Origin: Eledone cirrhosa
Lineage: Eukaryota
NCBI GenBank assembly: GCA_964016885.1
Contig: OZ024756.1
Span: 15,872,001-15,936,000 of the forward strand
DNA: 64,000 bases
Reading direction: 5' to 3'
Positions 31,330 to 32,914 of the stretch are shown piece after piece. Numbering within the stretch: the first letter of the stretch is position 1; each line of letters opens with the position of its first letter. The position numbers were made by a program, and so were the translations under genes. Under the pieces are notes generated by a model. The model was not told the origin of the DNA and made no database searches. It worked only from the letters and a program-made list of their open reading frames with translations.

Positions 31330-32540
31330 TGGCAGTATCGGTAGAGAGTCGGAAACCATGCTTTGAAGCATAGAGTTACGGCCCTTGTCATTCTGAGTTC
31401 AAATCCCGCCGAGGTTAACTTTGCCTTTCATCCTTACGGGGTCGATAAAATAAAGTACCAGTAATGTACTGGATATTTGCTGGCCTTGTGCCTAAAAATA
31501 GAAACAATTATTTAATATTGGTTAGACAATTTTTAGCATTCCTGTTGTCCCGTGCAATTGCCAAGCAATACAATTGATATTTTGTGTATCAATCAAAATT
31601 ATTATTTTGTATCATTTTGTAGACATTATTAGGTGGATTGGCAGTATCGGTAGAGGGTCGGACACCATGCTTTCCAGCATAGTTACGTCCCTTTACGGTC
31701 TGAGTTCAAATCCTGCCGAGGTTAACGTAGCCTTTCATCCTTACGGGGTCGATAAAATAAAGTACCAGTAATGCACTGGGGTAAATTTGCTGGCCTTGTG
31801 CCAAAATGTAGAAACAATTCTTATCATCATTTTAATTATTTCTTACAGTGTTGATGGTTATGAATTTCGTAAAAGAATCCAAGAAGAGCGCAAAAGAAAT
31901 ACTATGAAGAAGATTCAAGACATGAAACGAAGGCAGAAAGAGTGCGAGCCAGTACGGCAACGTAACCGGTATTTGACTCCGCTCTATATCGGTATAGTGC
32001 TGGCATTGGGTGGCAGTCTTCTGCTTTATCGTTACTACTAACTCCTACCGCCGAGGTTGACTTTGCCTTTCATCCTTACAGGGTCGATAAAATAAAGTAC
32101 CAGTAATGCACTGGGTAATTGCTGGCCTTGTGCCTAAAGTAGAAACAATTATTATTATTATTATTGTATTTGGCAGTAATCGGTAGAGCGTCAGGCACTG
32201 TAGCATAGTTACACCCCATTCGTTCTGAGTTCAAATCTTGTTGGGGTTAGCTTTGCCTTTCATCCTTAAAGGGTTGATAAAATAAAGCACCAGTAACGTA
32301 CTGGGGGTCGATTTAATCCCCCCCCCCCCCCTCCCAACTACTGGCCTTGTGTCTATAGCAGAAATCTTTATCGTTTTATCAGGGCGGTGAATAGAGTTAC
32401 AGCCCCCCTCCCCTGCCATTCTGAGTACGATTCCCGCCGAGGTTAACGTAGCCTTTCATCCTTATGGGGTCGATAAAATAAAGTACCAGTAATGCACTGG
32501 GGTAAATTTGCTGGCCTTGTGCCAAAATGTAGAAACAATT
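31330..32540 (+). mobile_element. SINE family B copies surrounding the duplicated terminal exons
   Basis: Copies at 31330-31510, 31630-31820 and 32048-32540. Confidence 0.8.
31849..32041 (+). CDS. PTPN2: PTP terminal exon copy 1 (basic tail + TM anchor, ends LLLYRYY*)
   Basis: tcttacag|T completes GA+T (Asp). FRKRIQEERKRNTMKKIQDMKRRQ resembles TC-PTP RKRIREDRKATTAQKVQQMKQR; hydrophobic LYIGIVLALGGSLLLY follows. Confidence 0.75.
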
Positions 32541-32569
32541 CTTATCATAATTTTTATTATTTCTTGCAG

Positions 32570-32777
32570 TGTTGATGGTTATGAATTTCGTAAAAGAATC
32601 CGAGAAGAGCGCAAGAGAAATACTATGAAGATGATTGAAGACATGAAACGAAGGCAGAAAGAGTGCGAGCTAGTACGGCAACGTAGCCGGTATTTGACTC
32701 CGCTCTATATCGGTATAGTGCTGGCATTGGGTGGCAGTCTTCTGCTTTATCGTTACTACAACACTAACGCCAACTAA
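32570..32777 (+). CDS. PTPN2: PTP terminal exon copy 2 (basic tail + TM anchor, ends LLLYRYYNTNAN*)
   Basis: tcttgcag|T; near-identical to copy 1 at +721 nt; followed by unique 3'UTR-like sequence. Confidence 0.82.
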
Positions 32778-32914
32778 CTCCTACCGACCAATACAATACA
32801 GACAAACCAACCAGCACTTCTTGCTTCACTCTTCTCCACTCCCCCCACCCAATTGGACATTGGTTCTTTTTTTTTTTTTTAATCACTTGAATGTACGAGG
32901 AATATTCAAAGACG

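Follow-up and report, generated by a model that had tools for sequence, protein, structure and literature searches.

The isoforms of TC-PTP arise by alternative C-terminal splicing, and TC45, which lacks the hydrophobic tail, is nuclear (PMC9456094, available part). In Drosophila the ER and nuclear isoforms of Ptp61F are distinguished by the presence or absence of an anchoring domain, according to the accessible text of PMC4138107. For the tail of PTP1B, three determinants are named in the available portion of PMC4592070, namely anchor length, charge and hydropathy, and charge is the clearest determinant of the choice between ER and mitochondria. C-terminal swaps between tandem duplicated exons are a known class, with 77 of 236 human events, most of them ancient, and the terminal regions of such swaps are rich in single transmembrane helices and coiled coils (PMC9741552, accessible sections). 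Duplication of a stem arm has been proposed as a source of docking site/selector splicing (PMC6071210 and PMC6191721, both in part). Searches of the literature on octopus PTPN1 exons and on cephalopod SINE-linked exon duplication, mostly without subscription papers, listed nothing on this locus.

The gene described here lies in a 64,000-nucleotide stretch of Eledone cirrhosa DNA (the window) and carries two copies of its last exon, copy 1 at 31849 and copy 2 at 32570. It resembles TC-PTP in having a basic cluster (RKRIREERK in copy 2, RKRIREDRK in TC-PTP) followed by a hydrophobic tail (PMC9456094, in part), and Ptp61F in being an invertebrate PTP1B/TC-PTP orthologue (PMC4138107, in part). Unlike TC45/TC48, both octopus copies keep the tail, and in the available part of PMC9456094 the TC-PTP isoforms do not come from a duplicated exon; unlike Ptp61F as presented in the accessible part of PMC4138107, no anchor-less product is predicted here. 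The initial annotation had drawn an analogy with TC-PTP and Ptp61F, which fails because those isoforms differ by the presence of the anchor, whereas both copies here share an identical 19-residue anchor. As in the PTP1B tail anchor, a single positive charge follows the membrane segment, but the three determinants of ER/mitochondria partitioning are equal in both copies and only five uncharged terminal residues differ (compared with the available portion of PMC4592070). The locus is like tandem duplicated exon substitutions in having homologous 3' coding exons in series; those substitutions, however, are described in the accessible sections of PMC9741552 as mostly ancient, expressed and conservative in their changes, whereas the octopus pair is 3% diverged with lopsided damage. 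We consider it probable (about 0.67) that copy 1 is a young, SINE-associated extra last exon that is decaying as a pseudo-exon.

The host gene and its two last exons

Judged by its motifs and homologues, the gene is an octopod PTP1B/TC-PTP-type (PTPN1/2) phosphatase. The exons and the duplicated segments are as follows.

10281-10387, 11736-11834, 12650-12796, 15168-15377 and 16004-16186 (+): five exons of the PTP catalytic domain, from tblastn with the O. bimaculoides protein and AG/GT borders
28030-28490 (+): penultimate exon, with the PPMPPKR motif and a low-complexity linker, ending in the phase-2 donor GA/gtaagt
31715-32050 (+): duplicated segment, copy 1, 336 nt, comprising a SINE 3' half, the acceptor, the exon and 12 nt from the stop codon on
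31849-32041 (+): copy-1 exon, 63 codons, ending YRYY*; likely a pseudo-exon, from its derived changes and absence of contig depth
32436-32786 (+): duplicated segment, copy 2, 351 nt, from self-comparison of the window
32570-32777 (+): copy-2 exon, 68 codons, ending YRYYNTNAN*; last exon of the ancestral type, from the X2 contig, the orthologue tails and the helix prediction

The open gene model matched Pfam PF00102 (Y_phosphatase) and contains the WPD loop, HCSAGxGR and the Q loop. All six upstream exons have AG/GT borders, and the frame is open with either last exon, giving 465 or 470 residues in the window; the catalytic motifs are intact, and 375/477 positions (~78%) are identical to the O. 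bimaculoides protein. The first ~60 residues of the protein were not found in the 64-kb window, and neither last exon matched a Pfam family. Among homologues of the last exon, PTPN1-like proteins from Argonauta hians, Octopus bimaculoides and O. vulgaris match best, and a repeat search brought no further information. The C-terminal features of the PTPN1/2 family, a basic stretch and a hydrophobic tail anchor, are present, supporting the initial annotation's view of a PTP1B/TC-PTP homologue with both elements in its last exon. The copy-2 exon consists of the basic helix and the tail anchor, followed by non-repeated sequence, and was predicted by AlphaFold2 (33-row alignment) to form one continuous helix with a mean pLDDT of 90.8.

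The O. bimaculoides isoform P0003 carries nine extra residues at the exon junction that matches 16186-28030. Intronic minisatellites occupy 22354-24094, 24156-24792 and 25286-25673, with periods of 43 (40.5 copies), 28 (22.8) and 56 (6.9), respectively, and are 94-96% matched. The open stretch at 5078-5425 (-) may be a fragment of a LINE-type reverse transcriptase.

Self-comparison of the window gave a gapless match of 31715-32038 with 32436-32759, at an offset of 721 and with 10 substitutions in 324 nt; 97% identity over this length is far beyond chance. The 15-nt segment 32760-32774 occurs in copy 2 only, after which identity returns for 12 nt (32039-32050 equals 32775-32786) and stops at ccg (32048-32050), at which copy 1 passes into a SINE. 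The sequence gccgaggtt borders copy 1 at both ends, and the variant gttaacgtagcc was found at 31721 and 32442 and nowhere else in the window. The copies are not head-to-tail, being separated by a 385-nt spacer of SINE pieces (32051-32435), which indicates a short local duplication rather than an array. Four of the substitutions are intronic (31744, 31828, 31834 and 31845) and six are coding (Q/R, a synonymous change in a K codon, K/M, Q/E, P/L and N/S), and divergence is alike in the two parts of the duplicate (6/190 coding vs 4/134 intronic). The first 32 nt of both exons are identical, the first diagnostic base being A at 31881 vs G at 32602. All six coding substitutions fall outside the 19-residue hydrophobic segment, and both tails have the same membrane segment and a post-anchor charge of +1. 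Both acceptors have their AG and 15/20 pyrimidines, and both last exons extend the frame of the exon ending at 28490 with no internal stop.

These results confirm the observation of the initial annotation with all its counts, namely a duplication at a 721-nt offset that includes a SINE fragment, the acceptor and the coding exon; a SINE variant shared by both copies; two open copies with intact AG; five nonsynonymous changes, one synonymous change and a 15-nt indel with an identical transmembrane segment; and a copy 1 that breaks into a SINE at ccg, with an AATAAA at 32091-32096.

Contigs from four of 23 runs (X1, X2, X3 and X5) were compared with 31280-32866. X1 and X3 are DNA-like runs of one sample, in which both upstream flanks appear: record 21 of X3 covers the left flank of copy 1 (31489-31651) with 0 differences and record 7 of X1 covers 32318-32477 with 2 differences. 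We regard as very unlikely an assembly artefact in which two alleles of one exon were set in series, an explanation that could draw on the density of SINEs in the region and on the lack of the copy-1 exon and its right junction in any independent contig. The repeat is only 336 nt long and has different flanks on both sides, the overlap at the right junction is 3 nt, on which no assembler would make a join, and the copies differ by substitutions and a clean 15-nt indel, with four of the five amino-acid changes on one copy; the two upstream flanks in contigs of one sample also count against it. The locus carries two real copies of the last exon, and the duplicate is a real, species-level one.

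Ancestry and constraint of the two copies

The orthologues of O. bimaculoides, O. vulgaris and Argonauta have R, L, E, L and N at the five sites that differ between the copies, followed by 9-10 post-anchor residues. Copy 2 has R, M, E, L and S with 8 post-anchor residues and copy 1 has Q, K, Q, P and N with 3, so that copy 2 matches the orthologues at R, E and L and in its longer tail, and copy 1 at N only. The polarity of the K/M site was assigned to copy 1 because L and M codons share the middle T. Four of the five amino-acid changes and the deletion thus appear to be derived in copy 1 and one change (N to S) in copy 2, and copy 2 (32570) is likely to be the ancestral last exon. At 32685-32687, S stands in copy 2 and also in the contigs of X1 and X2, vs N in the three octopod orthologues, in the relative represented by X5 and in copy 1; the S in X1 and X2 indicates either that this change post-dates the duplication or that copy 1 came from another haplotype.

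The changes in copy 1 were placed on 31 homologues, not counting P0003, which is an isoform of P0002. All homologues (31/31) have R at position 11, where copy 1 has Q (R11Q), and position 34, inside the predicted helix, is P in 0/31 and P in copy 1 (L34P). Against a reading of damage, K21 occurs in 4/31 homologues and Q23 in 5/31. Post-anchor tails of 4-6 residues are found in 22/31, so the short tail of copy 1 need not be harmful.

The exon has 147 nonsynonymous and 42 synonymous sites. The synonymous change was placed on copy 1 because the X5 relative shows no difference at 32615 among the 15 of 20 differences listed, and the copy-1 branch then has 4N:1S with an omega of about 1.1, calculated from five substitutions only. 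Between copy 2 and the exon of the X5 relative there are 20 differences, and the 15 of them that are listed divide into 2N:13S. The contrast between the copy-1 branch and this relative gave a Fisher p of 0.014, which becomes 0.13 if all 5 unlisted differences are nonsynonymous. The 4N:1S pattern fits neutral drift, and an omega near 1 is compatible with weak positive selection as well as with drift. Normally the last exon is under constraint, and copy 1 looks released from this constraint, at low statistical power. Purifying selection was thus not found on both copies, given the 4N:1S of copy 1 and the loss of its invariant R, again with low power. Copy 1 (31849) is likely a lineage-specific duplicate drifting without constraint. 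Its intact frame and acceptor, and the small number of substitutions (five) on its branch, are points against the view that it is decaying.

Contigs and the use of the two exons

The unique intron bin 31545-31597 is covered in X1, X3 and X5 and empty in X2. From X2, the 492-nt record 16, at a depth of 5.1, agrees with 32570-32804 over 235 nt with 0 differences, across all diagnostic sites of copy 2; no match was found in the compared stretch 31280-32866 for the 257 letters at its start. The match starts at the first exon base, as expected of a spliced molecule given that A is the last base of the upstream exon and G that of the intron. From this contig we infer RNA splicing to copy 2; none of the 23 listed runs, X2 included, is recorded as RNA. 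The copy-1 exon bins (31863-32021) had zero depth in 4/4 runs, and because contigs drop variants this zero is compatible with a copy-1 exon being present. At a depth of 5.1, an isoform of 20% would have a chance of about 64% of staying below depth 2, and one of 50% a chance of about 4%. As to use in mRNA, copy 2 was therefore seen in one spliced-looking contig and copy 1 in none at this shallow depth. The initial annotation had held that its proposal would fall if one acceptor were never used; the sole spliced-looking contig uses copy 2, and the result leans against copy 1.

The proposal in question was that the two copies are working, mutually exclusive last exons, with copy 1 used in certain tissues, ending at the SINE AATAAA and giving a phosphatase with altered targeting. 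The open frame, the intact acceptor with equal pyrimidine content, the location of all six coding substitutions outside the 19-residue anchor and the shallowness of the RNA-like evidence speak for it, as does the over-representation of C-terminal swaps among human tandem duplicated exon events (77/236; PMC9741552, accessible sections). On the other hand, the spliced-looking contig shows copy 2 only, copy 1 has lost an invariant R, gained a proline and taken a neutral-like 4N:1S, and its anchor and +1 post-anchor charge are the same as those of copy 2; a 57-nt anchor without mutation is also unsurprising at 3% divergence. Since only copy 2 occurs in the spliced-looking contig and the damage falls mostly on copy 1, two working last exons are not supported, and we consider this explanation unlikely.

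The individual behind the RNA-like contig may lack copy 1. In a wider form of this idea copy 1 would be a presence/absence variant whose proximal acceptor captures splicing in carriers, leaving copy 2 as 3' UTR, with the RNA-like sample being one without copy 1. The copy-1 exon is without a contig in X1, X2 and X3, the 352-nt contig of X1 runs unbroken across 32760, and under an insertion model the flanks seen in X1 and X3 would exist without copy 1 too. That contig (record 8, 32513-32864) has 3 differences, the one listed being the copy-1 letter at 32566. The copies differ at three positions in 32513-32569 and have 31-mers in common through which a mosaic path is possible, so the contig fits a collapsed mosaic of both copies, which would count against a variant absent from this sample, or equally allelic variation. 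Five substitutions and a deletion imply an old segment, and a damaged invariant residue would be hard to sustain in an exon that is mainly used; we find a presence/absence variant of this kind quite improbable.

SINEs, origin and fate of the duplicate

The repeat at the breakpoints has 24 matches in the window, with a tRNA-like head and a simple-repeat tail, and is high-copy, 12,330 to 229,783 contigs per run matching a mostly-SINE stretch. It is a tRNA-derived octopus SINE, with what we take to be A and B boxes in its head; ARAGORN found no tRNA gene. Named octopus SINE families include OR1, OR2 and OK. The copies that concern the duplicate are the following.

28525-28691 (-): antisense SINE, 35 nt after the donor, able to pair with any sense SINE of the intron
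31632-31714 (+): tRNA-like SINE head half forming the left flank of copy 1, from SINE alignment
32050-32155 (+): 3' half of a SINE, which copy 1 enters at the ccg microhomology (32048-32050), with AATAAA at 32091-32096
32170-32435 (+): part of the spacer with another SINE copy and a degenerate SINE head

The last intron also carries at least nine sense SINE copies or fragments besides the antisense SINE at 28525-28691. A near-perfect inverted repeat lies at 30061-30787 in the same intron, with arms of about 330 nt (326/330 columns matched) and ~70 nt between them; it could be a foldback element, a strong substrate for dsRNA formation and editing, or a long-read foldback artefact.

The AATAAA at 32091-32096 lies 49 nt past the stop codon of copy 1, and the initial annotation had proposed that copy 1 gained it as a signal. 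There are ten AATAAA on the + strand of the intron (28491-32569), seven of them in the same SINE context as 32091, and transcripts ending in copy 2 must pass all ten, so the hexamer alone does not indicate that a 3' end was gained. It belongs to the generic sequence of the SINE, and its description as a gain of copy 1 is not supported. Past copy 2, an 11-kb microsatellite precedes the next AATAAA, at 44371. Arrays of the TA/GA type extend over 11 kb (32922-43949) and 7 kb (52961-60127), the first beginning about 145 nt past the copy-2 stop, with no AATAAA before 44371. The 3' UTR of copy 2 may extend into the microsatellite array or use a non-canonical end signal.

Among the 12 GT sites listed inside copy 1, none matches the GTAAG donors of the gene. 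With no strong donor in copy 1 and a nearby hexamer that is generic SINE sequence, the main mRNA likely splices 28490 to 32570. It would encode one tail-anchored phosphatase. The copy-1 acceptor may be used to a minor extent, in which case the product would keep the anchor and have its basic helix damaged.

In alignment, the sequences on either side of copy 1 form two successive halves, head and 3', of a single SINE. Both breakpoints lie in SINE sequence, which makes SINE involvement in the duplication likely and supports the initial annotation on this point. A strand under repair or replication that was copying an intronic SINE would have jumped to the homologous element just before the true last exon, and there copied 351 nt, past the stop codon, until it returned at the 3-nt ccg microhomology. 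Copy 1 would thereby have been left inside the first SINE, flanked by gccgaggtt and without its native 3' UTR. Later, copy 1 would have lost 15 nt and taken five coding substitutions, and copy 2 one (N to S). Alternatively the 385-nt spacer was imported from elsewhere, which needs the same two switches; we mildly prefer the template-switch insertion. By either route copy 1 appears to have lost its native UTR. Comparison of SINE head and tail divergence gave p values of 0.018 and 0.038 for the two models and singled out neither junction as chimeric; in control copies as well, divergence is greater in heads than in tails. SINE matches elsewhere in the window have similar starting points, which weakens the argument from coincidence. 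A large SINE-to-SINE tandem duplication followed by deletion is unsupported, since the spacer (32051-32435) has no second copy above about 89% identity in the 64-kb window.

As in the docking/selector arrangement, a possible stem arm, the sense SINE before the acceptor, was copied together with the exon, and the donor has an antisense SINE next to it (PMC6071210 and PMC6191721, available parts). The antisense SINE forms duplexes with the SINE before either acceptor at -253 and -211 kcal/mol. It also pairs with the SINEs at 31329 (-282 kcal/mol) and, much nearer, at 29171 (-213 kcal/mol). Other sense SINEs thus pair as well or better, indicating that the pairing is not specific. A docking/selector system, which relies on specific and conserved complementarity of one docking site with one selector for each exon, would be putative here. 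One very improbable reading is that SINEs built a full last-exon switch by seeding the duplication, giving copy 1 its hexamer and supplying a docking/selector pair from the antisense SINE at the 28490 donor and the duplicated sense SINE before either acceptor; some tissues would then make a phosphatase with a weaker basic helix and a tail five residues shorter.

If copy 1 is instead a decaying spare last exon, the locus shows clearly what usually becomes of a duplicated terminal exon, which here arose at SINE homology, was severed from its UTR and is decaying, while the original last exon stays in use. The locus also calls for caution in annotation, as gene callers may choose the proximal, damaged copy. 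Were copy 1 used in a regulated way, it would represent an alternative last exon caught at birth in a signalling phosphatase.
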